A stretch of 64,000 nucleotides of DNA, from IMG/VR virus record IMGVR_UViG_2895319678_000007. One strand, written 5' to 3'. A program made the position numbers and the translations under genes. The stretch comes from a virus. Below the pieces are notes generated by a model that was not told the DNA's origin, made no database searches, and worked only from the letters and a program-made list of their open reading frames with translations. Shown piece by piece: positions 3,426 to 58,386 of this stretch (position 1 is its first letter; every line of letters begins with the position of its first letter).

Positions 3426-3905
3426 ATGTCATATATGATTTATCTATCGTTAAACGGTAAAAAACAAGGTCTGATATCTTCTGGATGCTCAACTCTCGAT
3501 TCCATCGGAAATCGATATCAAAAAGGACATGAGGATCAAATACAGGTACTTAGCCTAAATCATACTATTACACGAGAACAAAATGTCAGCCATCAACCTA
3601 TACAGTTTATTAAACCCGTAGATAAGTCATCACCACTATTGGCAATGGCTATAGACTCCAACGAATCGCTAGACGGTAAATTTATTTTTTACAGAACTTC
3701 TCAGTCTGGGCAATTAGAGTTGTTTTATGAGATTAAAATAACTGACGCTACTATCACTGATGTTTCTTGTGTATACCCTCACTCTATCAATAACTTCGAT
3801 GCCATCCCACATGAAAGGGTTTTCCTAAATTACAAATCCATCGCATGGAATCATATAACCGCTGGTACATCAGCATATAGCATATGGGAAGATAGAAATT
3901 ATTAA
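3426..3905 (+). CDS. hcp: Orphan T6SS tube protein Hcp (TssD)
   Basis: IYLSLNGKKQGLISSGC, HEDQIQVL, KPVDKSSPLL, Y.IKITDATI, E...LNYKSIAWNH motifs; 159 aa. Confidence 0.93.
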   Translation: MSYMIYLSLNGKKQGLISSGCSTLDSIGNRYQKGHEDQIQVLSLNHTITREQNVSHQPIQFIKPVDKSSPLLAMAIDSNESLDGKFIFYRTSQSGQLELFYEIKITDATITDVSCVYPHSINNFDAIPHERVFLNYKSIAWNHITAGTSAYSIWEDRNY

Positions 3906-10781: not shown

Positions 10782-11465
10782 TCAAACAGTGTAAGACACT
10801 GATCCTTTGAAAAAACTTTCGGGAATATAGTTAGCTATGTTATTTTCATAACAATATTCAACTAAATCTCGCTTACGTTTACCACCTATTTTTTGATAGA
10901 TATGTTGGAGATTATTCTCAACGGTTCGTTGAGATAAAAATAAGCGTTCAGCAATCTCCTTAGTTAAAAACCCTTGCAGAATATAAAACACGATTTCCCA
11001 TTCTCTTTTACTGAAAAAGTCAGATGGTTGCGTAAACACTAACGATGTTGGCACATTGATTTTGGTTAGTCTTTCGAGTGTTATTGTATCTACTGGTCTT
11101 CCATGAAAGATGGTGCCGTGACATACCCCGTTTTCATCGAGTATGGGGTACTTATCACAATACCACGGTTGAAGATAAGTCATTTTTTGAAAAGGATGTA
11201 TTTCAATTGAAGTTACCCTATCTAATATTGCTTCAACCCTCCTGTCCTGTCTTTGGAATTCTTCCTGAAAATTTGCTGTACATGATGGAATTTCACCATC
11301 AAAACGCCCTTCTATATTATACCCTTTAGGTAGGCAAAGCATCTCATTATGTTTTTCATTGGCATAGATAAATCGTGAATTGTTATCTTTTGCTCCCCAC
11401 GGATCATTACTGTTTTCCCAAAACCTAATTAACGGCTTAATTAAATCTTCTACTGACCTATTCAT
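10782..11465 (-). CDS. PAS-domain LuxR-family transcriptional regulator (LuxR solo)
   Basis: N-terminal PAS (PWGAKDNNSRFIYAN), C-terminal SKREWEIV..ILQG...KEIAERLFLSQRTVENNLQHIYQK. Confidence 0.9.
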   Translation of the reverse strand: MNRSVEDLIKPLIRFWENSNDPWGAKDNNSRFIYANEKHNEMLCLPKGYNIEGRFDGEIPSCTANFQEEFQRQDRRVEAILDRVTSIEIHPFQKMTYLQPWYCDKYPILDENGVCHGTIFHGRPVDTITLERLTKINVPTSLVFTQPSDFFSKREWEIVFYILQGFLTKEIAERLFLSQRTVENNLQHIYQKIGGKRKRDLVEYCYENNIANYIPESFFKGSVSYTV

Positions 11466-44068: not shown

Positions 44069-44440
44069 TCCTTAATACGTTTATCACTAACACAAGTATA
44101 ACAGTCTAAACGTTCATCGGAAATGTTCGTTTTTCATTATAAAAATAGGGGGAGGGGAGTGCTTTTGACATCGGGACATGTTGGTTGACATAGGGGGCAT
44201 CGGTATATTTAGAAAAACGATGAGGATCTTGTGAGGTTGCCCCACCGCGCGACGGGCGTACCGGCCACCGAATTTCCCATAAGGGGGGCTTCCCACGCGG
44301 CTAAAAGGTATTCTGGACGCCAGACAAAACGCGAAATAAGCCCTTGATATTATAGTTTAATATTATAATCACATGACAACATAACGCCGCGTGACAGCTT
44401 CTATTACCCTTATTTCACTCGAATGTTCCCTTTGCTATCA

Positions 44441-44470
44441 GACACAAAAAAACCCCGCATAGTGCGAGGC
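44441..44470 (-). terminator. Intrinsic terminator (twin copy at 44617-44645)
   Basis: GCCTCGCACTA(T)GCGGGG-polyT on the minus strand, present twice 176 bp apart. Confidence 0.8.
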
Positions 44471-44667
44471 TGATAATAACTGACGCATTTTTAATCTATC
44501 AAAAAGTATACTTTTTGAGATGCGCAAATTTACTCTATCAAAAGTCCTATTATATGTGATTTATCAAATAGCCTTAAAGATATTGATAGCATTGTGCCTT
44601 TTAACGCTGACTTATAGACACAAAAAAGCCCCGCTAGTGCGAGGCAGTTAATACCGTCTATTGATTA

Positions 44668-45321
44668 TTACTTAATGTCGTCAATTTCGGGGATCGGTTG
44701 CTCTTTCATTGCTTCCAGTTCTAGCAGTAAGGCCATGCGGTTAGTTTGATCAAGCTGCAAAAAGAGTGACTTTATCAATTTATATTGGCGGGCTTGAGGG
44801 AGCATCGTAAACCCCTCCGCAATATCACTCATCTTTGTTACGGCAAGAAACGATTTCGCTTTGATCTCGTCGTCGCGCGTATCCGTACCTTTACTACTAC
44901 TTTTCGCCGTATCATAGCGACTTTTCGCCGCATTAAATAATCGCCTTAGATTATTAAATACCACCTCTGCATTAACGCATTCGTCTGTATTGTTATCTAT
45001 CGCGGTTACTTTCAGCTCACCCCTATCAAACATATCCTTAATTTCTTGTTTAAAGAAGGGTAGAACCGTTTCTAAGACAGATCCTTTCTTCACAATTTGC
45101 GTGACATAAAAAATAAAAACTTCCGCTTTTAATTTATGGTCAGCTTTTGCAACGCGATAGACTTCATTAATTAACGTCTTACGCTCTGTAAGTCCAGTAA
45201 GTTTATACTGGTCATGTTTTTCTACTGTCTCTTTCGCTTTTTTCATCTCGGCAATCGCGGCGGCGGCAATCGTTGCCGTTGCTGCTGTTTTCTTTTGAGT
45301 CTTAACGGTATTGGTTAACAT
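44668..45321 (-). CDS. Hypothetical basic helical protein with its own sigma70 promoter
   Basis: SD AGAGG; TTGACA-17-TATATT at 45367-45395 on the minus strand. Confidence 0.65.
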   Translation of the reverse strand: MLTNTVKTQKKTAATATIAAAAIAEMKKAKETVEKHDQYKLTGLTERKTLINEVYRVAKADHKLKAEVFIFYVTQIVKKGSVLETVLPFFKQEIKDMFDRGELKVTAIDNNTDECVNAEVVFNNLRRLFNAAKSRYDTAKSSSKGTDTRDDEIKAKSFLAVTKMSDIAEGFTMLPQARQYKLIKSLFLQLDQTNRMALLLELEAMKEQPIPEIDDIK

Positions 45322-45699
45322 GATAAACCTCTTCTATAAGTGGCAATATTGCCTAGCATGTAATCAATATAGGTCATTTATTCGCCTATGTCAAACCTAA
45401 GATACTATTAAACAACATATAAACACTGTATATAAAAACACCATGCGACCAATAAGACAAGATAAAACGATCTCATTTTCTAAAAATTCAATTTCAAAAA
45501 CGCAATCATGTTCCTTTATTTTTTTAACCTCTTTTTCTTTTTTACGATCACATAGGTAAGGTGCCGTTATTGAGCGACAGAAAATGCGGGTATGTGATAC
45601 GCAATAAAATTGCATAATAATTCATTATTAATGAATAAGAAGTCACTAGTATTATTTTGAAATGCTACTACTCCACTTCAAATTTTTATCAAATCGCTG

Positions 45700-46450: not shown

Positions 46451-46518
46451 GCAAAATCAAATAGTACGCTTTATTCTTTTATTTCATTTTTATGCAAAAC
46501 CAAAATAGAAACCTTTTT

Positions 46519-46549
46519 ATTTGACATACATTCATTGCTTGAAAAAATA
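46519..46549 (+). promoter_or_regulatory. Repeated early promoter motif ATTTGACATA-N11-TGAGAAAATA (copies also at 51788, 52414, 53745)
   Basis: Four aligned copies with identical spacing, each just upstream of an early gene. Confidence 0.8.
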
Positions 46550-46583
46550 GATTATTCCTATGCACTCTAAAAAGGTTAATTTC

Positions 46584-46904
46584 ATGAAATACAATGAACT
46601 CAATATACAACTTCCCGAATCATTGATCGGCGAATTAGATATATTCCTGCGGGAGAAGAATATCGACAAATCTCTATTTGTCCGTGAGGCCATTACACAT
46701 CATATGCTGTTATTAAAAGGTGCAGAGCCGACAACGTTTCCTACGCAATATGACGAGAGCATATCACGCAGAGACAGCATTATTCGAAGCCTCGTACTGG
46801 ATTATCAGGAATTGAGTCGCAGTATAAAAGCACTACGTTGGGATATAGAAGCGACAATAACGGGAATAAATCAAGATGGCGAATTACGAAAACTGATTGC
46901 ATAA
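46584..46904 (+). CDS. Ribbon-helix-helix (CopG/NikR-like) regulator
   Basis: LNIQLPESLIGELDIFLREKNIDKSLFVREAI. Confidence 0.75.
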   Translation: MKYNELNIQLPESLIGELDIFLREKNIDKSLFVREAITHHMLLLKGAEPTTFPTQYDESISRRDSIIRSLVLDYQELSRSIKALRWDIEATITGINQDGELRKLIA

Positions 46905-47280
46905 ATCATCAGGTTCAAGCGACGTTATAGTAAAAATAATTCACGTAATATCGGAGACACGCATGAAAAATGATACGCGTTCTGTGACATTTGATGTTAA
47001 TGATTTTGAAACCAGTGATTCATTTATAGTGAATGTGATATTTCCAAATCATGGTTATTGTACGGTGACGTATGACAACAATGATGTCATTACCGCACGC
47101 CAAATATTAGTAGACCATCCCACATTCAGATCCATTGCAATTTTGTGTGATGTAATTTGGCCGGAGGATATGGCCGGGCGACCAAAACAGGAAGAATTGG
47201 TTGTGACAAAATGGTCATTAGATTTTGAATTTATCAATGAACCCACAGTGGACGTTCTTTTTATTTCTTTACCCGATTAA
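46897..47280 (+). CDS. Hypothetical early protein (start possibly 46963)
   Basis: ORF in the operon with the RHH gene. Confidence 0.55.
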   Translation: MHKSSGSSDVIVKIIHVISETRMKNDTRSVTFDVNDFETSDSFIVNVIFPNHGYCTVTYDNNDVITARQILVDHPTFRSIAILCDVIWPEDMAGRPKQEELVVTKWSLDFEFINEPTVDVLFISLPD

Positions 47281-47295
47281 GCGGAGAATTTAAAA

Positions 47296-47652
47296 ATGAA
47301 TATAACAAAAGTGATTGAAAAGATGCTACCAGAATATGTTTTACTGGATTTATCGAAAGAGGGAACGTTGTCGAGAGTATATGTACTCGAGGGGGAATTT
47401 ATACCGGCAACTGATATACACCCGCCATGCATCGAAGTACGCTGTCGTGATGCACCGAGTGCAAGTTATTATCGTGGTAGTAGGGATACGCCGGATGCAG
47501 TATCGGATGCCGTGAAAAAATATTACGAGCAGGTAGGCATTAGGCATAATGAAACGGTGATCGAGCATATTGTGCTGGAGTGGCCTGAGACGATGAAGTT
47601 TACTGCGATCCTCCTTGTTGTTGAAGGGATCTTATCCGCGTTAAAGAAATGA
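47296..47652 (+). CDS. Hypothetical early protein
   Basis: 118 aa, SD GGAG. Confidence 0.6.
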   Translation: MNITKVIEKMLPEYVLLDLSKEGTLSRVYVLEGEFIPATDIHPPCIEVRCRDAPSASYYRGSRDTPDAVSDAVKKYYEQVGIRHNETVIEHIVLEWPETMKFTAILLVVEGILSALKK

Positions 47653-47697
47653 CTATCGCAGCAGTCTCAGTCATAGAGCACACTCCTTTACAAATTT

Positions 47698-48012
47698 CTA
47701 AATACCATCAAAGATAAAATCCATTGCTGCCTTAATTCTGTCACGGTACTGAGTTGCATCACAAAATTCCGCACCCAAAGCGCGAACAGGTACACTTGCC
47801 AATTCATGCGTCATGACCGCATATTCTTTGTCGTCTATCAGTCTGACAAGCGGGATCATTCGCTCCGGGCGAGCGTTATCGGGATATTTTTCAATAGGCA
47901 GCAATGGAATAACAATTCTTCGGTTTAATTGCCCAATAATGTCGCTGGTGACATCCAGTAACAGAGGATAAACAGAGGTTCTTCCAGTATTACAATAAAC
48001 GGTGAATTGCAT
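47698..48012 (-). CDS. ccdB: Gyrase poison CcdB
   Basis: MQFTVY..YPLLLDVTSDII..LNRRIVIPL...MTHELASVP...DFIFDGI. Confidence 0.93.
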   Translation of the reverse strand: MQFTVYCNTGRTSVYPLLLDVTSDIIGQLNRRIVIPLLPIEKYPDNARPERMIPLVRLIDDKEYAVMTHELASVPVRALGAEFCDATQYRDRIKAAMDFIFDGI

Positions 48013-48014
48013 AA

Positions 48015-48251
48015 TTAAAATGTCCTGTATTCATCACTGAAACAGCCGTGTTCATCATGAAAACGGTTTAATGCTTCCAGAGCTTCTGCGTTTTCTTCCT
48101 GCCATTTCTTCGCCTCATAATGACGTAATTCTGCATCCAGAGCAGCGGAAAAGGTTGCGCTGAAATTGATGCCTGCCTCACGTGCCCGACTCAGTAAACC
48201 TCTTTCTATGGTCATTGTGACACTTTGGGTATTTCTTTGTTTTACTGTCAT
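48015..48251 (-). CDS. ccdA: Antitoxin CcdA
   Basis: KWQEENAEALEALNRF.DEHGCFSDEYRTF. Confidence 0.93.
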   Translation of the reverse strand: MTVKQRNTQSVTMTIERGLLSRAREAGINFSATFSAALDAELRHYEAKKWQEENAEALEALNRFHDEHGCFSDEYRTF

Positions 48252-48402
48252 GATTGATTTCCTCCATTAACATATCGTGCAGATTACACGTAAATATACA
48301 CAAACACAATCACAGTGCTTTTTTATTCTTTTTATTGTGCGAGCTACAATTAGTTGCAATACTTAATGTTGTAACTTGCACAGCAACTTTTCGAGGTAAC
48401 TT

Positions 48403-48843
48403 ATGACAACAGAAACGATAGATCATTCTACCCTCTACCGCTTGGTTGACGCGGGTGTGGTGCGTGATGCACAGGTTGTGAGTACACTTGATGGCTGGAT
48501 AGTGACCGTAAAGTATGGCATCGCAGAGTGTGCGCTAGCCGCCCAGCGCAGTGGTCAGGTACGTCTGTTTAAAAAATTGGAAACGCTGGTGAATTATCTG
48601 CAAAGCATCGGGATTGCCCAGTTTAATGTTGACGCCTCCAACTACAGCGCAGAACACCAGAGCAAGAATGCGCGTCCCGATAGAGCCGTCGCGTTAAAAC
48701 GTGCACATGAAGCGGCTGCCTATGACGAGTGGTTCAAGGCACAGGTGCAAGCGTCCATTGACGATCCGCGTCCTGCGATAGCCCACGAGGATGCTAAACG
48801 TCATTTTGCGTCCAAAAAAGACAGTCTACGTAAGGGATTATAA
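48403..48843 (+). CDS. Antitoxin with a PaaA2-like C-terminus and an extra N-terminal domain
   Basis: AYDEWFKAQVQASIDDPRPAIAHED resembles PaaA2 SYNEWLRAKV..SLADPRPAIPHDE. Confidence 0.78.
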   Translation: MTTETIDHSTLYRLVDAGVVRDAQVVSTLDGWIVTVKYGIAECALAAQRSGQVRLFKKLETLVNYLQSIGIAQFNVDASNYSAEHQSKNARPDRAVALKRAHEAAAYDEWFKAQVQASIDDPRPAIAHEDAKRHFASKKDSLRKGL

Positions 48844-49124
48844 TGCGCCTTGAGTGGAAACCTATGGCTTTGGCGGACAGGGAGCAGATCATGGATTATA
48901 TCGCTCAGGATAATCCACAGGCCGCGATTGTGCTTGATGATGAGTTTGAAGCATCGGCAGAGCGGGCTTGTCTGCAACCTGAGATGTACAAGCGTGGCAG
49001 GCTGAAAGGGACGCGGGAGATCGTGGTCAGACCGCACTATATACTCATATACCGTGTTGAACGGGATATCCTGATGGTTTTACGTATTCTTCATGCTGCG
49101 CAACAATGGCCGCCAACGGAATAA
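48843..49124 (+). CDS. parE: RelE/ParE-family toxin (ParE2-like)
   Basis: LEW...ALADREQIMDYIAQDNPQAA...GTREIVV.PHYILIYRV...ILH. Confidence 0.82.
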   Translation: MRLEWKPMALADREQIMDYIAQDNPQAAIVLDDEFEASAERACLQPEMYKRGRLKGTREIVVRPHYILIYRVERDILMVLRILHAAQQWPPTE

Positions 49125-49195
49125 CAGAATTTCTGACGGTTTAGGCATAGAATTCTACAACAGTGATAAGACATAAGTGTCTAGAAGGGGGACAA

Positions 49196-50323
49196 ATGTC
49201 ACAAGGGGCAAGATTCGTCGAGAACAGTTATTTAAAAGAACCCACAGAAGAGATGCACCCGAAGCTAAAAGAAACACTGTGGTTTTATATAAAGGGCAGT
49301 CTGGCGCACACACGGGAGCTATTACGTTTAGCACCGAGTAATGCTGCGTGTCCACGAGCGTCCGATGTGCGCGGATGGATGGAAATACTGGATCTGAATA
49401 CGGTGGGTATTGCGCGTTTATTAGGGGTACAGCGGACAAGCGTTGCGACGAACTACCTGAAACCGGATTTGGAGAAGCAGGTGGGTATGACGGCACCGCG
49501 TTTACTGCGGGCGGGGTTGCTAACGGGGTATTTTAAACACCATCCCGATGCGCCTCAGTATTATGCGGCGATGGGCTTACTGGATGAGATGGTTAAAAAG
49601 GGTGAGCTGGACAAGATATGGTATACCATTGTGAACGCGAAGAAACATGGTGCCAAACCCGAAGTGATTGATCAGCTCCGAGAGGCCGCCATTGCGACAA
49701 TGTGTCCGCAATATCCCATGAGTTTATCAGATCCCGGTAATGTAGCGGGGTCGGACGATAAAAGTGCGGCTAGAAAAGTGCGGCCAACGCGGGAAGTGTA
49801 TCGGATGGAAGCCGCTGATAAACGCCGTTTGAACAAGGATTACTCACGACATGTGATTGTCGATGAGGATTTTACCGGCGCGACATTAGACGGCATGTAC
49901 AATGAAACGGTGTTCGTGAATTGTATCTTTAATCAAACCAAGTTGGTGGGGCAATTCTATGATGCCGAGTTTTACCAGTGTCAGGGGACACAAATCTTAC
50001 TCAATGGCTTCTTTGACCGCGCACAATTCTACGAAGCACGCTTTGATGTGATCGAGCTGAAAGGGTCATTCACATTCAGTCGTCTGATCTCCTCCTTTTT
50101 TGGTAATCCCGATGGCATTGAGGCAAAACCGGAACAATTTGAGGGTGCAGAGGGTATTCTTTCCTATATCGATGTCCGGTTGCCCGAACCCCGCACGATA
50201 GATGGCCGCGAAACGCTATCAAAATGGATACAAATTTTCCCGGCGGCAAAAGCATGGTCACGCACGACTCAGCCCGGAACCCCGATGGGTGACGTCTTAC
50301 ATGACGCATATTTTTCTGTATGA
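49196..50323 (+). CDS. XRE-type HTH fused to pentapeptide repeats
   Basis: WMEILDLNTVGIARLLGVQRTSV (HTH); FTGATLDG..FVNCIFNQTKL..FYDAEFYQC..FDRAQFYEARF (repeats). Confidence 0.65.
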   Translation: MSQGARFVENSYLKEPTEEMHPKLKETLWFYIKGSLAHTRELLRLAPSNAACPRASDVRGWMEILDLNTVGIARLLGVQRTSVATNYLKPDLEKQVGMTAPRLLRAGLLTGYFKHHPDAPQYYAAMGLLDEMVKKGELDKIWYTIVNAKKHGAKPEVIDQLREAAIATMCPQYPMSLSDPGNVAGSDDKSAARKVRPTREVYRMEAADKRRLNKDYSRHVIVDEDFTGATLDGMYNETVFVNCIFNQTKLVGQFYDAEFYQCQGTQILLNGFFDRAQFYEARFDVIELKGSFTFSRLISSFFGNPDGIEAKPEQFEGAEGILSYIDVRLPEPRTIDGRETLSKWIQIFPAAKAWSRTTQPGTPMGDVLHDAYFSV

Positions 50324-50404
50324 TTGAAAGAATTCGCGCTGTGTAGCTATTAGCTACACAACCTGTTATACTCTTTGTATATCTATTAGCTATACAGGTG
50401 ATGT

Positions 50405-50677
50405 ATGAAAACACAACCGAAAGAAACGCCAATTAATATCCGGGCAAAAGCCTTTCAACGGGATCTGATTGACCACGCAGCCAGTCTGAATTCAAAGACG
50501 CGGACTGATTTTATCTTGGATGCCGCTTGTCGCGCAGCCGAAGAGTCCATCCTTGAGCAACGTCATTTTTTCGTTGACGAGGAAAAATATCAAGCGTTCA
50601 TGCAGATGCTGGAGAAACCCCTTTCTGAAAATGAAGGCTTTAAAAAACTGATGGAGTATAAAGCACCGTGGGAATAA
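50405..50677 (+). CDS. DUF1778 RHH antitoxin (TacA/AtaR-like)
   Basis: INIRA...RDLIDHAA...KTRTDFILDAACRAAE; operator palindrome TGTGTAGCTATTAGCTACACA at 50340. Confidence 0.9.
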   Translation: MKTQPKETPINIRAKAFQRDLIDHAASLNSKTRTDFILDAACRAAEESILEQRHFFVDEEKYQAFMQMLEKPLSENEGFKKLMEYKAPWE

Positions 50678-51150
50678 GCGCACCGGAATTACTCACGGCT
50701 GACCACAATCTCAGTGATTTTTATTGTCAGCACGAAACATTAAATGAATGGCTTGCACGCCGGGCTTTAAAGAATAATAAGCTCGGTGCAAGCCGTACCT
50801 TTGTTATTTGTAAAAAGGGGACAAAAGACGTTATCGGTTATTATTGCCTGAGCGCAGGATCAATTCATCATATTGATGCAATCCCCGCGCTTAAACGTAA
50901 TATGCCGAATCCTATTCCCGTTATTCTTCTCGGCCGCTTGGCTGTCGATATAAAATATCAGGGGCAAAAACTGGGCGCATTGCTGCTACAGGATGCCTGT
51001 AAGCGTGTCGCCAGTACTGCGGAACAAATTGGTATCTCAGCGATAATTGTCCATGCTCTTGATGAGAATGCCCGCATGTTTTATTCCCGTCTTGGTTTTA
51101 CCCAATCACCGCTAGAACCCTATACATTGATGCTGCCATTAGGTAGATAA
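50668..51150 (+). CDS. GNAT acetyltransferase toxin (TacT/AtaT-like)
   Basis: PVILLGRLAVD..YQGQKLGALLL.DA, VHALDENARMFY..LGF. Confidence 0.92.
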   Translation: MGISAPELLTADHNLSDFYCQHETLNEWLARRALKNNKLGASRTFVICKKGTKDVIGYYCLSAGSIHHIDAIPALKRNMPNPIPVILLGRLAVDIKYQGQKLGALLLQDACKRVASTAEQIGISAIIVHALDENARMFYSRLGFTQSPLEPYTLMLPLGR

Positions 51151-51326
51151 AAATAACCAATATTATTCGGGATAAAATAATATAACCTCTCTTTCCATCG
51201 CTTTAATGTAAACTTAAAATATAAAGTTGAAGTTTTAATGTTATTTAATATTCATCGAAATATAAAAAAGAGTTTTAAATGGCTTGGATTTATCATTAGT
51301 TCTGTCGATAGAGAATTAATTGTGGA

Positions 51327-51740
51327 ATGAGTATGAAAAAGTTTATCCTGTTAACATTATTATGTTTTCCCGGCATAGCCCTCTCTGCCACTAAAACACC
51401 CTCTCAAAAAGCGTTAGATTATTGTGCAACCGTTGATTCCTGGGCGGCACAAAAAGTCATTGATGCCGAATTGCGAAAAGGGAAAGAATTGGATCGTGAG
51501 AAAGCTACCGCTTCTTTGATTAATAGAACGAAATTAGTCAGTGGAAAGAATGCGATCCAACTCGGTGAATGGGGACAATTGTACACGCAGACAATTGAAG
51601 TCTCTGTTCCCTACATTGATAATCAAAAAAAGCCGATGCGATTGATTGTTTCGTCAATTATTTCTGCTGAAGAATGTTCCCTTACAGAGCCTGCTTATGT
51701 CGATATGACATTGGGTGATTATACTTCCCATCAAAAATGA
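51327..51740 (+). CDS. Exported two-Cys protein of unknown function
   Basis: Signal peptide MKKFILLTLLCFPGIALSA; C..SWAA and ECS motifs. Confidence 0.7.
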   Translation: MSMKKFILLTLLCFPGIALSATKTPSQKALDYCATVDSWAAQKVIDAELRKGKELDREKATASLINRTKLVSGKNAIQLGEWGQLYTQTIEVSVPYIDNQKKPMRLIVSSIISAEECSLTEPAYVDMTLGDYTSHQK

Positions 51741-51899
51741 ATAAATAGCCCATGTTAATTATCGCATGGGTTGTTTTCACCTCCCTCATTTGACATATAA
51801 ACCCTACCTGAGAAAATAACCTCATTAAATTAATTAAATAGCACTATTTTTAACGACAGCTATTTATCTTTAATCACACCCTTCATTGAGGAATTAATT

Positions 51900-52331
51900 A
51901 TGTCTTCAGAGAGAGAACCCATTACGAAAAAAGAAGTCAGCGACGCCAAAAGAATGCAGTTTTTGCCACATCACTTTGGGCGTTATTTTATGAACGCTGA
52001 GACATACCTTTATAACTGGATGGACAAATATGCTACGGATTATAATGGCGATTATTATTCATATTATGAATTGTCTAACGGTGGAATATTAATCTGTCCT
52101 GCTAAGCGTTATTCGTTATGGTCACCTAATGGTGAATCTTTTGACGATTTATCATCAGAACAAGTGGGTATTACAGTAACACTCTTTTTACTGAATCATT
52201 TCATGTTTAAAACCTATGAACAAGAACAGAGAATGGCGGAGGACTTTAGTCGTAAATACGAAGGATTACTCGATTACGGTGCAGGATTAGGACAAGAAAT
52301 CTGGACACCCATACGAGCCTTAATTGATTAA
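51900..52331 (+). CDS. ardB: Antirestriction protein (ArdB/KlcA family)
   Basis: RMQFLP.HFG, YNG.YY.YYELSNGG, GITVTLFLLNH, IRALID. Confidence 0.88.
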   Translation: MSSEREPITKKEVSDAKRMQFLPHHFGRYFMNAETYLYNWMDKYATDYNGDYYSYYELSNGGILICPAKRYSLWSPNGESFDDLSSEQVGITVTLFLLNHFMFKTYEQEQRMAEDFSRKYEGLLDYGAGLGQEIWTPIRALID

Positions 52332-52488
52332 TTTCCCTGCCTGACAACACTTCCCGGTTATGAAACCAAAATAGCATCTATGTCATTAAGTTCATGGAGG
52401 ATATTCCACGCTTATTTGACATAGGTGCATACAGGAAGAAAATAATATTCATCGAGAAAGAAATAGGATTTATATGTGAGGTATAAAT

Positions 52489-52998
52489 ATGACACCTTCT
52501 ATTTTTGTCACGACAAAAAAACGTTTCGAGCGCGATCCAGGTAACGGAGAGTGGTTCGATTTATTGGACTATTACGATGAAGAGGAATTTTTAGAGGACG
52601 TAAAGGCAACTTGTGGAAAGCTAGATGAGGACGATACTTATTTTTTTCCCGATTGGATAGACATTCCTAAAGAGGCACTGAACAAAGAAGGGCATGTGAA
52701 CTGGGAATATATCGACGTACTCTCTCAGTTAAATGATGATCGTCACAATGCCTATTATGCGTATTGTACGAATCTTCTTTATATTGTCGATAAAGCGACC
52801 TTTGAAAATGCCTATATTACCACTCTGGCTCAAGGGGAATCAGAGTCCGATTTTGTTATAGAGTATGAAGGTGATTTTTTAGATGATAAGGCGATCCCTG
52901 AGATATGCCGACTTTATTTTGATTGGGATGCCTATACACAGGATCGGTTTACTGATACCTATATATGTTATGAAAAACATATCTTTTATAACAGATAA
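52489..52998 (+). CDS. ardA: ArdA-like acidic DNA-mimic antirestriction protein
   Basis: Highly acidic; GEWFDL.DY.DEEEF, LYFDWDAYTQDRF. Confidence 0.8.
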   Translation: MTPSIFVTTKKRFERDPGNGEWFDLLDYYDEEEFLEDVKATCGKLDEDDTYFFPDWIDIPKEALNKEGHVNWEYIDVLSQLNDDRHNAYYAYCTNLLYIVDKATFENAYITTLAQGESESDFVIEYEGDFLDDKAIPEICRLYFDWDAYTQDRFTDTYICYEKHIFYNR

Positions 52999-53007
52999 TT
53001 CACGCAG

Positions 53008-53301
53008 ATGGATAACAGGAGAAAAACGATGGCAAAATTTATTACTTTGCCAGCCGGACAGGTGGTGAATCCGACAAATATTGTGTATATAACGAATGTC
53101 CTGAAAGTGCGGAAAGGCCCATCGAGTCATATTCTCGCAATGACTCCTGAAGAGATTGAGAATATACCAGAGCAGGCACTGTATGCGTTTCGCATAAACA
53201 TGATCGATTATCATATTTGGGTATTCGGACAGAATACGACATCTGAACAATCCGCTGAGAGCATTCGAAATAGTATTGTCTCGCAATTAACTACCGACTA
53301 G
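53008..53301 (+). CDS. Hypothetical early protein
   Basis: 97 aa in operon. Confidence 0.55.
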   Translation: MDNRRKTMAKFITLPAGQVVNPTNIVYITNVLKVRKGPSSHILAMTPEEIENIPEQALYAFRINMIDYHIWVFGQNTTSEQSAESIRNSIVSQLTTD

Positions 53302-53312
53302 GAATAATTCTT

Positions 53313-53663
53313 ATGCCAGAGCTTCAACTCGAAACGAGAACGTCTGCTGTTATTTCTACAGCACACTTATCACAGTCAGATATGGAATTACTCACACAGT
53401 ACACTGAGCGTTTCCACGATGAAGGGGATATGGTTGTACGTATGCCTGAGAAAGTAATACGTCTTTATAAGGAAGGTATCGAAATCTGTCTGGCAACAGA
53501 CGAACATTTAGAGTGTATGGAGGAGATAGCAAATACTCTTGACTTATCAGATGGTTTTCTCAATAATCTGCAACGAATAAAAGAGAATTACCCTGATCTT
53601 TATTCTATCGTTTTTGACCAAGATGCCTTCTTAGTTTCCGGTTTAATCGAATTTGATTGGTAG
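53313..53663 (+). CDS. Acidic protein with ISTAHL motif (DUF5983-like)
   Basis: AVISTAHLSQSD, IVFDQDA. Confidence 0.55.
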   Translation: MPELQLETRTSAVISTAHLSQSDMELLTQYTERFHDEGDMVVRMPEKVIRLYKEGIEICLATDEHLECMEEIANTLDLSDGFLNNLQRIKENYPDLYSIVFDQDAFLVSGLIEFDW

Positions 53664-53709
53664 TACAAAATATTGAATGATTAATTACTCATTCTTAATC
53701 AGACAGTTC

Positions 53710-53737
53710 GGCTCCATTATAATGGAGCTATTTTTTT
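53710..53737 (+). terminator. Intrinsic terminator directly before promoter copy D
   Basis: GCTCCAT-TATA-ATGGAGC followed by TATTTTTTT. Confidence 0.8.
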
Positions 53738-53802
53738 ATCTGTTATTTGACATACATACCGTACTTGAGAAAATAAAGATATATTTTCAAGAGGAGAAAG
53801 AT

Positions 53803-54444
53803 ATGTCAGGTAATTATCATGACTCAAGACCGCGTTGTCTTGTTTGTAAAGGGCACGGCTGTTTTATTTGCAATGAAACAGGTTTACTTTCTGAATTAAC
53901 TTACAATAACGAATCTGTCTCTGTACTCGCAAAGACCGTATTCAGCACGTCTGATGTGGATAGCTATATTCAGACTATCTGTAAAAAAATTAAGAAGGTT
54001 ATACAAAGTGGAATAAAAGTCTCATCTTTAGAAAAGTACCCCCTTGACGAATTTATGTGGCAATTAAAAAAAGAGATCAGAGCAGATATTAATGACAATA
54101 TACCCCATTCCGATATTGGGACATGGTGGCGGATAAATAAAGAGGTATTACCCGCAAAAGAAGCCATAGAGGAATGCTACCTTTTAATTGACCTGCGCAC
54201 AGCGTGTGATATGGGTGAAGTATGGTGTGAGGAACGTCGGATAATCCGAGATGATTACTTTGATGATTATTGTATCGAAGAGTTATATGAATTGGGATAC
54301 CTTTCCTATCGAAATGCAAATATTATAAAATCATCATGGTTAGAGCAATTCATTGACCGGGAAAAATTAAAGGATACGATACAATCCGATTACATTTCTA
54401 TTTCTTTATCAAACGGGGTGGAGTATTGGATTTATAATCAGTAG
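53803..54444 (+). CDS. Zn-finger plus ArdA-C-terminal-like acidic protein
   Basis: CLVCKGHGCFICNETG; IIRDDYFDDY.IE..FIDREKL..DY..NGVEYW; start corrected (SD GAGGAG). Confidence 0.55.
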   Translation: MSGNYHDSRPRCLVCKGHGCFICNETGLLSELTYNNESVSVLAKTVFSTSDVDSYIQTICKKIKKVIQSGIKVSSLEKYPLDEFMWQLKKEIRADINDNIPHSDIGTWWRINKEVLPAKEAIEECYLLIDLRTACDMGEVWCEERRIIRDDYFDDYCIEELYELGYLSYRNANIIKSSWLEQFIDREKLKDTIQSDYISISLSNGVEYWIYNQ

Positions 54445-54454
54445 GTATTTATAA

Positions 54455-54784
54455 ATGAAAATTAAACCCGAACATTATCAAGAATTAAAACGCCTATATA
54501 TTAAGACAATAAAAACCGTTTCTTTACCTCATGAAAAAAATTTATCCGACACGTATAATCGTTGTTTAGAATACATCGAGATATCTAATGAGCAACGTAA
54601 GAATCTTCGTTTACGCTGGCATTTTTATTTCATGGCAATCAATAGGAAAGGAATTTACTCTGACCACTATGAAAATGGACGCTGTGGATTTGGCGGGATA
54701 TTGCATTCTTATTTGAATGACGATCACATTGATACTGCCCTTAAAAAAATAGTAACGGAGCTGGATTTTTCACAGGGTGAATAA
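54455..54784 (+). CDS. Hypothetical early protein
   Basis: 109 aa; YLNDDHIDTALKKI. Confidence 0.6.
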   Translation: MKIKPEHYQELKRLYIKTIKTVSLPHEKNLSDTYNRCLEYIEISNEQRKNLRLRWHFYFMAINRKGIYSDHYENGRCGFGGILHSYLNDDHIDTALKKIVTELDFSQGE

Positions 54785-54968
54785 TGTTTTCCTATTCGTT
54801 TATTTTACATAGCAGCCATATTGAATAATCATAAAACAAGAACAGAATACGGGAAAACGCATAACCATTAAAACCTTTTCAGCAGTCACATAAAAGTATA
54901 TGGTTAATGGGCATTAAGACGTCCCGAACATATTCTATTTTGGTTAGCCTATGTAAAGGTGTATTGTT

Positions 54969-55580
54969 ATGCAACACGTATTAAAAGAAGCCTATACCAC
55001 ACAGGAAGAGGCACGTCATGTTGCACAAAGAATGGCAAGTGCAGCGGGCGTACCCATTTGGATTTATCATCGCAAGCATAAATGGTTTGTCAGTGGCGCA
55101 GTAAATTTGTACGGACACAGGCCAATCATTCCGTCAGTAAAAGAATTCCGGCGTAAGCATCCGATTTATACGTACTGGAAACGAACCGACATTCCTACAG
55201 TACATTATGTCAGTTTGTATGCAGGAAAGTATTATATGCTTGTGGACAACCTGATTACTGCCGTCCCGCTTTATACGCTAGTCTATTTATTATCACAAGG
55301 AAGCCTGTTAGTGATATCACGGACAGACGAGGATAATACGGCAAAAGAAGTAACGTATTATTTACGACGTTACCTGACAGATCAGGTTTTATACCGTTCT
55401 GTCGGTTTTCGTGTCTTTATCGTTCTTGCGGATAAAGATTGGGATATGCTGAAAACAAAGATGTATAACGCGGCGTTGATTTATGACGCGCTCTGGAAAC
55501 CACCAGTTGGTATAACGCAGGAGGAATCATGGCACGTACTCCCGAATCAAAAGTTAAGGAACAAGTCGATAGTTTACTAG
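54969..55580 (+). CDS. Hypothetical protein
   Basis: 203-aa ORF heading the replication operon. Confidence 0.6.
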   Translation: MQHVLKEAYTTQEEARHVAQRMASAAGVPIWIYHRKHKWFVSGAVNLYGHRPIIPSVKEFRRKHPIYTYWKRTDIPTVHYVSLYAGKYYMLVDNLITAVPLYTLVYLLSQGSLLVISRTDEDNTAKEVTYYLRRYLTDQVLYRSVGFRVFIVLADKDWDMLKTKMYNAALIYDALWKPPVGITQEESWHVLPNQKLRNKSIVY

Positions 55581-55915
55581 CGCATGTCGGTGCCTATGTT
55601 CTTACCCCCACGACAGGTGGCTTCGGGCGTAGTGGTCATGCTGACAAAATATGTTGTGTACCAGATAAACAGGGTGGACAGGGATCATTTTTGGCCGTTG
55701 AGGTCAAAGCGGGAAAAAATAAACCCACGGCACTTCAATGCAGACGCTTACTTTCCGCACTGAATGCCGGTGCCTATGCCGCCGTCGTGAATGAAACCAA
55801 TCTGTCTGTATTTCAAACCTGGTTAGATACTATTCATAACGGTACGCTTGACGGGCCACGATACCTGTTACCGAAAGGGATTACGCTGTCTGTTAATACA
55901 AAAGTCGGAAGATGA
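55529..55915 (+). CDS. VRR-NUC (PD-(D/E)XK) nuclease
   Basis: PESKVK, G.SGHAD, FLAVEVKAGKNKPTALQ. Confidence 0.9.
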   Translation: MARTPESKVKEQVDSLLAHVGAYVLTPTTGGFGRSGHADKICCVPDKQGGQGSFLAVEVKAGKNKPTALQCRRLLSALNAGAYAAVVNETNLSVFQTWLDTIHNGTLDGPRYLLPKGITLSVNTKVGR

Positions 55916-55964
55916 GATATAGCGTGTTAGGGATAGCCGCCATGAAATAAATCGAGGGGGTTTA

Positions 55965-56294
55965 ATGAAATACGTGCGTGTCACTCTTTCCTGCGAAGAA
56001 CAAGAATGGTCATATGATGCCGAGGAGGATTTGAATGAGGAACAACTCATTCGTTATATTACTGATTTACAGAAAAAAATAGAACACCATTATAAGCGTC
56101 CGCCCGCACATTACGATAAAGAAAAGCTACAAATGGCAGAGCATCATTTGCAATGTTTAAAAGAGCTTCATGACCGCCGTCAAGACACCGTAAGCCTCCC
56201 CTTTATGTCAAAGACCGGTGATTGGGTGTTGATGTTCTGCCTTATCGGGATGCTTTATCTGATTATCAGGCCACTACTGGGCATTGGAATATAA
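55965..56294 (+). CDS. Hypothetical protein with a C-terminal TM segment
   Basis: WVLMFCLIGMLYLII. Confidence 0.55.
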   Translation: MKYVRVTLSCEEQEWSYDAEEDLNEEQLIRYITDLQKKIEHHYKRPPAHYDKEKLQMAEHHLQCLKELHDRRQDTVSLPFMSKTGDWVLMFCLIGMLYLIIRPLLGIGI

Positions 56295-58386
56295 CATCAT
56301 GTTATACGCATACGATTATGGGATCAGGCAGCAGGGCATATTCAATGATAAGGAAAAGCAGCACGCCTGCAACAACTTAGCCAATGCGCTCGCGTCTGAT
56401 TTTGACCGTATTCCGAAAGTCTTTTTGGATTTTGAAACGTTTTATGATCCCGCCAATAAATACTCGTTATCCGCAAAAGGCATGACCTATGAAAAGTATG
56501 TTCGTGATCCCCGCTTTCAGGTCATACTGTGCTCCATTATCATTCCGGATACGGGCGAACGGTACTGGATACCCAATCATAAAGGTGCCGTGAGAAAAGA
56601 ACTGGAATCCCTCCAATTACATGACTGTAATGTCCTCGCACACAATACTCCCTTTGATGGTTTTATTCTGTCAGATTACTACGGTATCGAACCCCGTGAA
56701 TTTACCTGTACCCTGACGATGGCTCGGCCATTACACGGTGCAAAAGCAGCAAACAGTCTGGCCCGATTAGCCAAAGGGTATTCGTTGCCGGAGAAAAAAG
56801 ACGACGTTCACCATGTAATGGGAATGCGTCTGGAGCATTTCACCGCAGCGGGCTTGCAGCGGTACGGGGAGTATGGTCTACGAGATGTCGATATTTTACC
56901 GCCCCTCTACGGTTTGTTTCGGTGGCACTATTCTGAAATGGATATGGTCACGATGTCCGACACGATACGGGCGGGTTGTGTCTGTCAGTTTGATTTGGAT
57001 AAAGCATTATTACGTGAGTATATTCCGCGCCTGATACAGTTACAGGAAGATAAACTGGCAAAAATTTCGGCGGCTTTTTCACAAGATGTTGAGACGTTTC
57101 GTCAACGCTTATCGTCAAATCCCCAATTTGCTGAGGTACTGATGCAATTGGGTGTAGAAGTGCCGATGAAAGACAGTAAGACTGCCAAGAATCCGGACGG
57201 ATCACCCAAAAGGACGTATGCTTTTGCCAAAACGGATATGGGGTTTAAGGCACTGTTAACGTCAGGCGATCCCTTTCTGGAAGCAGTCTGTGAAGCACGC
57301 ATGGGCGAGAAGTCCACGATTGGCATTACACGGGCCAAAAATCTATTAGATATTGCGCATCGGGGTAAGATGCCGATCCCCCTGAAAGCCTTTGGTGCGA
57401 CGACGGGACGGTGGGTTGGCTATCAGGATATTAATGTCCAAAACTTTCCCAAACGTGGGGGTGATCTGACCTTGCGAAGATCTGTGCGGGCACCCAAAGG
57501 CTATTCGGTCGTGACCTGTGACTTAGCACAAATTGAAGCCCGACGTATGGCAGACCATGCAGGACAAAACGATTTGCTGCTACAGTTTGCCCGCAATGAA
57601 GATCCTTATTCTGACTTTGCCACGACATTGTACGGTTATGAAGTGTCAAAAACGAATGGGCGAAAAAAGGAACGTAACGTAGGTAAAGAGGGCATTCTGT
57701 CCCTGCAATATGGTTCGTGGTTTGAATCCTTCTATTTACGACTTCGCACGGCTTACGATCTGGATGTAACCAAAGAGTTCTGTCATGACGCTGTTTTACT
57801 GTATCGTGACCGTTATACAAATATCGTTCAGTTCTGGACAGAGTGCCAGAATGCCTTAGACGTCATGCTTTATGGCGGTTCCTATTCTTTTGGTTATGAA
57901 AATAACTATACCGCCATGAAAAACAGACTTATCTTGCCGGATGGTTGGGTATTACGTTATGACGATCTTCGCATCGCCGGTAAAGATGAACTGAACCGCG
58001 ACATTATTTTATATACCGATGCCGAGAAACGGGAAACCCGTAAAATTTATCGCGGCATCATTGCGAACAATGTCACACAAGGCAGCTCGACACGGATTTT
58101 GCAGGGGATGATGATGAACCTGCGAAATGACGGCCTTTTCTGGTGTTTAACCGTCCACGATGAATTAGCTTTTCTCGTGCCAAACGAAGACCTTTCTGAT
58201 TGTTGTGCACAAATCCAATACAGGATGAGAGAACGCCCCGATTGGGCACAACGGACACCAATAGATTGTGAGCTGACGGTTGGCCCCAATTATGGTGATC
58301 AATATGACGAAGATATCTGGATGGCGTCTGGCTTTAATCAGATTAATGCCGAAGCCCTTTTGAAAGAACGCAACCAAACGCAATAA
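56284..58386 (+). CDS. polA: Family A DNA polymerase with 3'-5' exonuclease
   Basis: LDFETFY, AHNTPFD, DLAQIEAR, RNVGKEGILSLQYG, LTVHDEL. Confidence 0.96.
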   Translation: MEYNIMLYAYDYGIRQQGIFNDKEKQHACNNLANALASDFDRIPKVFLDFETFYDPANKYSLSAKGMTYEKYVRDPRFQVILCSIIIPDTGERYWIPNHKGAVRKELESLQLHDCNVLAHNTPFDGFILSDYYGIEPREFTCTLTMARPLHGAKAANSLARLAKGYSLPEKKDDVHHVMGMRLEHFTAAGLQRYGEYGLRDVDILPPLYGLFRWHYSEMDMVTMSDTIRAGCVCQFDLDKALLREYIPRLIQLQEDKLAKISAAFSQDVETFRQRLSSNPQFAEVLMQLGVEVPMKDSKTAKNPDGSPKRTYAFAKTDMGFKALLTSGDPFLEAVCEARMGEKSTIGITRAKNLLDIAHRGKMPIPLKAFGATTGRWVGYQDINVQNFPKRGGDLTLRRSVRAPKGYSVVTCDLAQIEARRMADHAGQNDLLLQFARNEDPYSDFATTLYGYEVSKTNGRKKERNVGKEGILSLQYGSWFESFYLRLRTAYDLDVTKEFCHDAVLLYRDRYTNIVQFWTECQNALDVMLYGGSYSFGYENNYTAMKNRLILPDGWVLRYDDLRIAGKDELNRDIILYTDAEKRETRKIYRGIIANNVTQGSSTRILQGMMMNLRNDGLFWCLTVHDELAFLVPNEDLSDCCAQIQYRMRERPDWAQRTPIDCELTVGPNYGDQYDEDIWMASGFNQINAEALLKERNQTQ

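Follow-up and report, generated by a model that had tools for sequence, protein, structure and literature searches.

The DNA analysed here (i.e. the window, 64,000 nt of the viral record IMGVR_UViG_2895319678_000007) covers nearly all of a 67,540-bp Xenorhabdus element whose GC content is like that of the host genome. An earlier note, made from the sequence alone, had described an array of early and anti-restriction genes behind a repeated promoter motif, and this arrangement was confirmed: four copies of the motif (promoters A to D) and a weaker fifth site (promoter E) lie among these genes, all on the plus strand. Promoter A (46519–46549) is followed by a ribbon-helix-helix (RHH)-like gene (46584–46904; assigned from a sequence pattern and a weak match to the RHH protein aCcr1, E 0.0046), two small open reading frames (ORFs; orf127 and orf118, the latter at 47296–47652) and a block of toxin-antitoxin pairs. 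Promoter B (51788–51818) precedes an ardB/klcA-type antirestriction gene (51900–52331; PF03230, 38.7 bits against a cut-off of 25, E 1.2e-9). The unit behind promoter C (52414–52444) spans 52489–53663 and consists of ardA (52489–52998; PF07275, 35.2 bits against a cut-off of 27), orf97 (53008–53301) and a DUF5983 gene (53313–53663), all three of which are kept in the related elements described below. Promoter D (53745–53775) precedes a unit at 53803–54784 comprising an ORF for a 213-aa zinc-finger protein (CxxCxGxG-type motif) and orf109a. Promoter E (54804–54832) lies before the start of the replication block (54969–58386), which holds orf203, orf128, orf109b and a family-A DNA polymerase gene. 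The names ardB and ardA, first given without database searches, were borne out by these family matches above cut-off, but the description of the zinc-finger gene as ArdA-like was not upheld (BLASTP E 2.2 against ArdA and no family match). Homologs of the zinc-finger protein were found only in these Xenorhabdus elements, and the same was true of orf203.

The motif, ATTTGACATA-N11-KRARAAAATA, matches the window at exactly four positions (46519, 51788, 52414 and 53745), always on the plus strand and at the coordinates first reported. There were no matches in 100 dinucleotide-preserving shuffles and none besides the four in the full 4.58-Mb genome, and a relaxed pattern (ATTTGACATA-N13-ARAAAATA) had no matches in 400 other genomes of the same family. 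A weight matrix was built from all copies and scored on the whole genome and the relatives. The four sites scored 34.7–46.2 bits, with promoter D at the top (46.2 bits), as compared to 22.7 bits for the genome's next best site, and no further degenerate copy of at least 14 bits was detected on any of the four elements. An independent repeat search recovered the same four sites as one family (D2), the members of which share only ~30 bp at 70–85% identity. Single motif matches were present in each of 34 other viral contigs in a scan of viral contigs, as chance is expected to produce in so large a collection for a pattern as long as this one. Could the four copies be a chance or compositional repeat without function? 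The array region is AT-rich (33–39% GC), AT-rich DNA yields promoter-like words, and the promoter scan overall returned 35 promoter-like sites versus 42 in shuffles, i.e. no excess. This explanation was nevertheless refuted by the shuffle, whole-genome and 400-genome results and by the retention of orthologous sites while their flanks diverge, and its probability is negligible.

All four copies were read by the promoter scan as TTGACA, a 16-bp spacer and AAAAAT or GAAAAT, with invariant spacing. This agrees with the TTGACA-16-GAAAAT promoter, with an extended -10 TG in three copies, that had been proposed initially, and is of the sigma-70 type; the -10 of A is AAAAAT. Promoter A consists of TTGACA at 46521–46526, the 16-bp spacer, TGn and AAAAAT at 46543–46548, and its transcript is predicted to start near 46555; for B to E, the predicted starts are near 51824, 52450, 53781 and ~54839. 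Promoters B and D both read TTGACA-16-TGaGAAAAT, whereas C reads TTGACA-16-GAAAAT and lacks the TG one base before the -10; across the four elements this TG is present in 11 of 15 copies. The -35 hexamer matches TTGACA at 6/6 positions in the four copies of this element and in 11 orthologous copies, and the -10 hexamers (AAAAAT, GAAAAT, GAGAAT or GAGCAT) differ, with the key A-11 and T-7 retained in every copy. The four motifs are all intergenic and co-oriented with genes whose starts, with Shine-Dalgarno sequences, sit 29–83 bp downstream (83 bp for ardB, 46 bp for ardA and 29 bp for the zinc-finger gene). A degenerate fifth copy, suspected at ~54802, was located at 54804–54832 as the weaker promoter E (TTTACA-17-AATCAT), with a 17-bp spacer, and is kept in all three relatives with a better -10 (AATAAT). 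Its spacer in the relatives, TACACACCGTA, is homologous to the spacers of B and D, which are 72% identical to each other; A and C have spacers with no relation to those two. As B, D and E retain similar spacers, the family appears to have arisen by duplication. Within it, B, D and E make up a sub-type; C is nearer in sequence to the promoter (45366–45394, minus strand; TTGACATAGG-17-TATATT, with TTGACA and 11 of 12 bases matching) of the leftward gene orf217 (44668–45321, minus strand).

Related elements were identified in Xenorhabdus sp. KK7.4 (G401, 66.8 kb) by means of the viral-contig motif scan, which gave two matches, and in X. bharatensis (G402, 67.3 kb) and X. yunnanensis (G403, 66.9 kb) through a protein-based scan of species genomes; among 36 species genomes from the genus, three contained the element. 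No further relatives came from viral-contig scans or from a 150-genome sample of the family. Promoters A to D occupy orthologous places in the relatives, except that D has been lost from X. bharatensis together with its two genes. Promoter A is kept in all three as TTGACATAC...TTGGAAAAAT, and the -10 of promoter C drifts to GAGAAT or GAGCAT. Each element has three or four occurrences of a looser pattern, TTGACATA-N14-RARMAT, and the other 4.7–4.8 Mb of those genomes contain no more than one. Pairwise identity between orthologous copies was 100% for the -35, 94% for the -10, 89% for TGn and 85% for the spacer, as compared to 71–75% for the flanks (30 bp upstream and 20 bp downstream). This profile is, to judge from the alignments, what a working promoter leaves as its footprint. 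Directly observed for the promoter copies are their sequence, specificity, placement and conservation. Homologs of orf217 with 32% identity were also found on 62–65-kb contigs in public assemblies, indicating that elements of similar size exist beyond these four.

The four motifs and the degenerate site at 54804 are probably a duplicated family of host sigma-70 early promoters on a Xenorhabdus phage-plasmid; their activity, early timing and strength are what we infer from the features above. Promoter A apparently heads the rightward early region, and the family would start rightward early transcription, diverging from the leftward virion genes at ~45–46 kb. Transcripts from A would cover variable small genes and toxin-antitoxin pairs, those from B ardB, those from C ardA-orf97-DUF5983, those from D the zinc-finger gene pair and those from E the replication genes. 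As such promoters need only host RNA polymerase, the antirestriction genes would be readable once double-stranded DNA is in the cell. The copies would have arisen by duplication and would be maintained by selection on the polymerase contacts. Phages usually turn on their first genes in this way, making the family an ordinary feature in a little-known element, and the general interest is modest because such a family is expected in a phage. Early-promoter families are often conserved beyond the two hexamers. The T7 early promoters A1–A3 are clustered at one genome end before a single operon, ahead of gene 0.3 (Ocr). The array resembles T7 A1–A3 and the T4 and T5 systems in having strong host-polymerase promoters at the head of an early region with anti-restriction as first product. 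It differs from T7 in that the promoters are spread, one per cassette, instead of clustered, and in that the products are plasmid-type ArdA and ArdB/KlcA instead of Ocr. The analysis provides an early transcription map (i.e. five promoters, two terminators and predicted starts) for an undescribed family, in which plasmid-type ardA and ardB would each have a host-polymerase promoter to themselves, in the manner of phage early genes.

The element is a circular ~67-kb short-tailed Xenorhabdus phage-plasmid, which is not a conjugative plasmid and belongs to a previously undescribed family. Virion genes include an SU10-type portal, the best matches of which are portals of short-tailed phages at <30% identity, and a gene for a 2,305-aa virion-type giant protein. 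Plasmid functions are represented by ParM, StbB, CcdAB, PaaA2-ParE, TacA-GNAT (TacAT) and a resolvase, and replication functions by a family-A polymerase (PolA), an exonuclease, a PD-(D/E)XK nuclease, an SNF2 helicase and a DUF927 primase-helicase. The virion genes point leftward, whereas those for early functions and replication are read rightward; at the point of divergence (~45–46 kb) GC content drops to 28% and the cumulative GC skew is minimal. Terminal overlaps of 99 and 111 bases were present in two of the three sister contigs, which are therefore circular. The plasmid state assumed in the earlier note was consequently well founded, given the circular sister contigs and the partition, resolvase and toxin-antitoxin genes on the element. 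A near-identity search of a plasmid database with the element returned ccdAB as its sole match (~76%). Restriction sites were not specially purged from the early region, where 6-bp palindromes occurred at 0.72–0.74 of expectation versus 0.60–0.73 elsewhere.

These genes also bear on whether the motifs might be single-strand promoters of a conjugative leading region (i.e. of the Frpo/ssi type), active on the entering strand. Frpo elements precede leading-region genes such as those of the ardA type in many plasmids (PMC11541004), ardA and ardB are classic leading-region genes, and in both settings promoters lie before ardA-type anti-defence genes that must act at entry. The element, however, carries a full virion module, and no relaxase or type IV secretion genes turned up in library scans of its proteins. 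Folds of the four sites as single-stranded DNA gave z-scores of -1.0 to -2.7, with no arm pairing with the -35 and -10. The boxes are canonical in duplex form. Unlike Frpo/ssi sites (PMC11541004), those described here have no long imperfect hairpin, no conjugation genes were found with them and the DNA enters double-stranded. Single-strand promoters of this kind, very improbable on these grounds, were ruled out because the required hairpins are not formed and the element is not conjugative.

Terminator hairpins had been reported directly before B and D, and both were confirmed. A terminator-like hairpin, tB (51744–51781, plus strand; -17 kcal/mol, z -4.6), ends the A unit and abuts promoter B, its stem being kept in the relatives despite base changes. 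The intrinsic terminator tD (53710–53737, plus strand; an 8-bp stem followed by U7, -11.4 kcal/mol, z -4.8) closes the ardA unit and abuts promoter D, and is likewise kept in the relatives. Hairpin folding and the promoter scan revealed no terminator hairpin directly before C or E. The proposal that ardB, ardA and the zinc-finger gene form separate promoter-gene-terminator units thus holds at tB and tD but not between ardB and C or between the zinc-finger unit and E. As terminators precede only B and D, the array is not a row of closed units; its layout is [A...] tB [B ardB][C ardA-orf97-DUF5983] tD [D zinc-finger-orf109a][E replication]. At B and D, the fusion of a promoter to the terminator of the preceding unit would create insulated promoter-plus-gene cassettes resembling the promoter-stem-loop (PeSL) elements considered below. 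The leader of ardB (51819–51899) also contains a palindrome that varies between elements: in the three relatives it is perfect (10+1+10; ATCAAACGAT A ATCGTTTGAT), and in this element it reads AAATAGCACTATTT.

The genes that lie between the promoters vary among the four elements, and the five copies lie within 8.3 kb in the most variable part of the element. Promoter D and its two genes have been swapped as a block for two leftward genes in X. bharatensis. On the left, the swapped block directly follows the U-run of tD, and on the right it stops just short of the -35 of E. The replacement (contig00023, ~49,300–50,950, equivalent to 53740–54800 of the window) carries genes for 208 and 129 aa, function unassigned, and its promoter-like site is a different one (TTGACA-16-TATATT). 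Elements with and without the RHH block part ~10 nt past the -10 of A, orf118 being the first gene after promoter A in G401 and G402, and the break upstream of B sits at the 5' edge of tB. Contigs of a near-identical element (mostly 95–99% alike) from other samples of the same study (runs X1 and X3) diverge at both borders (46499 and 47700) of the A-RHH-orf127-orf118 segment. A contig of run X1 joins 52351 to 52886, with 534 nt replaced by 13 nt, a deletion that takes promoter C and the 5' two-thirds of ardA. Parts of the stretch that were uncovered in runs X1–X3 were left out of the evidence. Cassette borders in this array hug regulatory elements, as they do in the PeSL-bearing regions of T4-type phages.

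Such borders raise the alternative that the repeated promoter(-terminator) sequences are mainly recombination linkers, with exchange between copies inserting, deleting or swapping early cassettes. Five homologous copies in so short and variable a region, the differences in gene content between them and break points that abut promoter and terminator elements would all fit, and there is a precedent in PeSL elements, which are strong sigma-70-like early promoters with a stem-loop that are repeated in hyperplastic regions and recombine with one another (PMC2839356, PMC4122927). Set against this, no junction lay inside any copy and no hybrid promoter was seen, ~30 bp at 70–85% identity is short for homologous exchange and the X1 deletion, with its 13 other letters between 52351 and 52886, is independent of the copies. 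Selection alone also predicts borders at gene and regulatory boundaries, leaving linkage as the main role of the repeats a doubtful proposition. In form, PeSL elements of T4-type phages appear to be the closest analogue of the array (Arbiol et al. 2010, PMC2839356; Comeau et al. 2014, PMC4122927). Both systems have repeated, conserved sigma-70-like early promoters joined to a stem-loop terminator, both place these between small, variable and mostly unassigned early genes in a hyperplastic region, and both consist of cassettes that each carry a promoter of their own and are insulated from the next one. The array differs in that stem-loops occur at B and D but not at A, C or E, in its five copies as compared to dozens, in its setting on a temperate-looking short-tailed phage-plasmid and not a T4-like myovirus, in having junctions that abut the copies and no crossover inside one, and in that the genes served include the recognisable ardA and ardB.

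Several results weigh against the reading of the sites as sigma-70 early promoters maintained by selection on polymerase contacts. GAAAAT is a non-consensus -10, and is unchanged in all seven copies of B and D; pure selection for strength would not predict a fixed GAAAAT, so that these bases might have a second reader, or an intermediate strength might be selected for. Of the 27 TTGACA hexamers on the element, 10 have TA directly after them, as compared to 5.5% of 1,719 in the rest of the genome. The nominal P of ~1e-6 overstates this difference since the copies are kin, and a plain sigma-70 view accounts for the excess solely via common descent. The conservation footprint rests on four closely related elements and so has limited power. 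Finally, the X1 deletion uses no promoter copy, and recombination between copies is not supported. On the element as a whole, the density of TTGACATA was seven times that in the rest of the genome, some of the sites being within genes or not promoter-like (18996, 56211 and 60374).

A second reader of this kind was central to the earlier note, in which the copies were promoters with a common operator through which one element-encoded repressor silences the anti-defence and early regulon in the plasmid state, the regulon firing on entry into a cell without repressor. Such a model resembles P1 C1 with its dispersed operators, or ArdK with the CUP elements of IncN plasmids. A plasmid-prophage must silence at least promoter E, which lies before the lytic replication genes and belongs to the same sequence family. 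Compatible with an operator are conserved non-consensus bases, i.e. the G and A of GAAAAT, the TA after the -35 and the B/D/E spacer TACAnACCnTAY, and also the enrichment of TTGACATA; ArdK, moreover, provides a precedent, as it binds CUP sequences before ardB, ardK and repA (PMC6289460). The note had argued from conservation beyond the hexamers to a single regulator. The only bases common to 15/15 copies, however, are TTGACA, the following TA and a -10 of RARMAT, with TG in 11, and copy A of the relatives keeps neither the ATT that precedes the -35 nor the A that follows the -10. As the shared bases are essentially RNA polymerase contacts plus two bases, this argument is weak. No dyad or direct repeat common to A–D was found, and the spacers of A and C are unlike those of B and D. 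Control of the promoter family by one element-encoded repressor is possible, but we consider it unlikely.

Candidate repressors were also assessed individually. The RHH gene just downstream of A had been suggested as the common regulator, but has no homolog in G401 or G402 and persists only as an 18-residue remnant in G403, with promoter A intact in all. Because these sister elements keep the promoters without it, the RHH protein cannot be the common regulator of the family. The near-identical element in another sample also diverges right around this gene, which is an accessory confined to the present element and may control promoter A here. No CI-, Cro-, C1- or ArdK-like protein was recognised on the element with Pfam, PHROGs, NCBIfam and PADLOC, the ArdK result being no proof of absence as it was left unchecked whether these four libraries hold an ArdK model. 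A PDB sequence search of the unassigned ORFs gave nothing usable, and the window contains no match to the LexA box CTGT-N8-ACAG.

The neighbouring gene orf217 is kept in the relatives, divergent from A and positioned behind a near-perfect promoter, and has five homologs. Its product was modelled as all-helical (pLDDT, the model confidence score, 71) and had no Foldseek match in the PDB, which lends the repressor proposal no help; a search of the ESM Atlas returned viral hypotheticals only. The closer homologs share an invariant acidic C-terminal tail, PEIDDIK. The spacer of the orf217 promoter contains a dyad (ATAGG...CCTAT here, and perfect 7-bp arms, ATAGGTT/AACCTAT, in the relatives) that is likely to be an operator. 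Genes kept in all four elements also include orf203 and orf128. A further candidate, a conserved 375-aa protein (49196–50323, plus strand) that had been described as a helix-turn-helix (HTH)-pentapeptide protein, gave a model too poor to search (pLDDT 39) and likewise lends the repressor no help; only residues ~220–290, which are beta-rich and solenoid-like, were fairly confident. Its start is probably the Met 11 codons into the listed ORF, and a 49%-identical homolog is present on 64 contigs of up to 63.8 kb.

The CUP/ArdK regulon appears to be the closest analogue to this repressor proposal. As described in PMC6289460, CUP of the IncN plasmids pKM101/R46 is a repeated upstream element bound by ArdK (Delver and Belogurov 1997, via PMC6289460). 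Within the limits of that account, the two systems share a repeated upstream element with a promoter, placed before antirestriction (including ardB) and establishment genes on a mobile element. They differ in that CUP is bound by a known repressor, ArdK, whereas no such protein was found here, and in that CUP belongs to a conjugative leading region, whereas the present array lies on a phage-plasmid with a virion module on which relaxase and type IV secretion genes were not found. This likeness is one of description and not of sequence against a CUP consensus, the text of PMC6289460 printing no CUP sequences. A second comparison is with phage P1. The C1 repressor of P1 acts at operators that are dispersed over the plasmid-prophage, the operator being an asymmetric 17-bp sequence. 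The element likewise is a phage-plasmid whose scattered promoters would need one repressor in the plasmid state, but no C1-like protein or asymmetric 17-bp operator was found, and the shared part is the promoter itself. It is rather improbable, though conceivable, that the five rightward promoters, perhaps with the TTGACATAGG-type sites at 44186 and 45394, carry operators of an unrecognised immunity repressor. If so, a new family of short-tailed phage-plasmids without a CI-, Cro- or C1-like protein would have P1-like dispersed-operator immunity built into the promoter core, and one protein would silence both antirestriction and lytic replication genes in the plasmid state and release both at entry. 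Small defined pieces of this DNA could show how a phage-plasmid without a recognisable repressor quiets its lytic genes.

Conserved sequences were also noted near individual promoters. At 46460–46475, i.e. 45–60 bp before the promoter A -35, a 15-mer (ATTTTTATGCAAAAC) does not vary among the four elements although its surroundings do, and might serve as a binding site or an UP-like element. For promoter C, the -35 and the following bases (TGACATAGGTGC) have a 12-bp inverted copy, which is located 33 bp upstream of C (52373–52384 versus 52418–52429) and is kept in all four elements with one mismatch each. This pair could act as a C-specific operator pair or as an RNA hairpin in read-through from B.

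Near orf217, a TTGACATAGG-type promoter-like site at 44186 (plus strand) is followed by a GC-rich non-coding stretch of ~130 nt, which hardly differs among three elements (44160–44330). This stretch runs toward two similar tandem minus-strand terminators (44451–44471 and 44628–44645), which are 175 bp apart. An Rfam scan over 43.4–56.4 kb, including this stretch, found nothing at or near the gathering score; from its sequence and position between orf188 and orf217, the stretch has the look of a small structured RNA, or else of a convergent sense/antisense pair. Two cargo loci, unrelated to the promoter finding, were also present on the phage-plasmid, i.e. an Hcp (type VI secretion) gene at 3426–3905, with DUF1240 genes close by, and a gene for a PAS-LuxR (GerE) regulator at 10782–11465.

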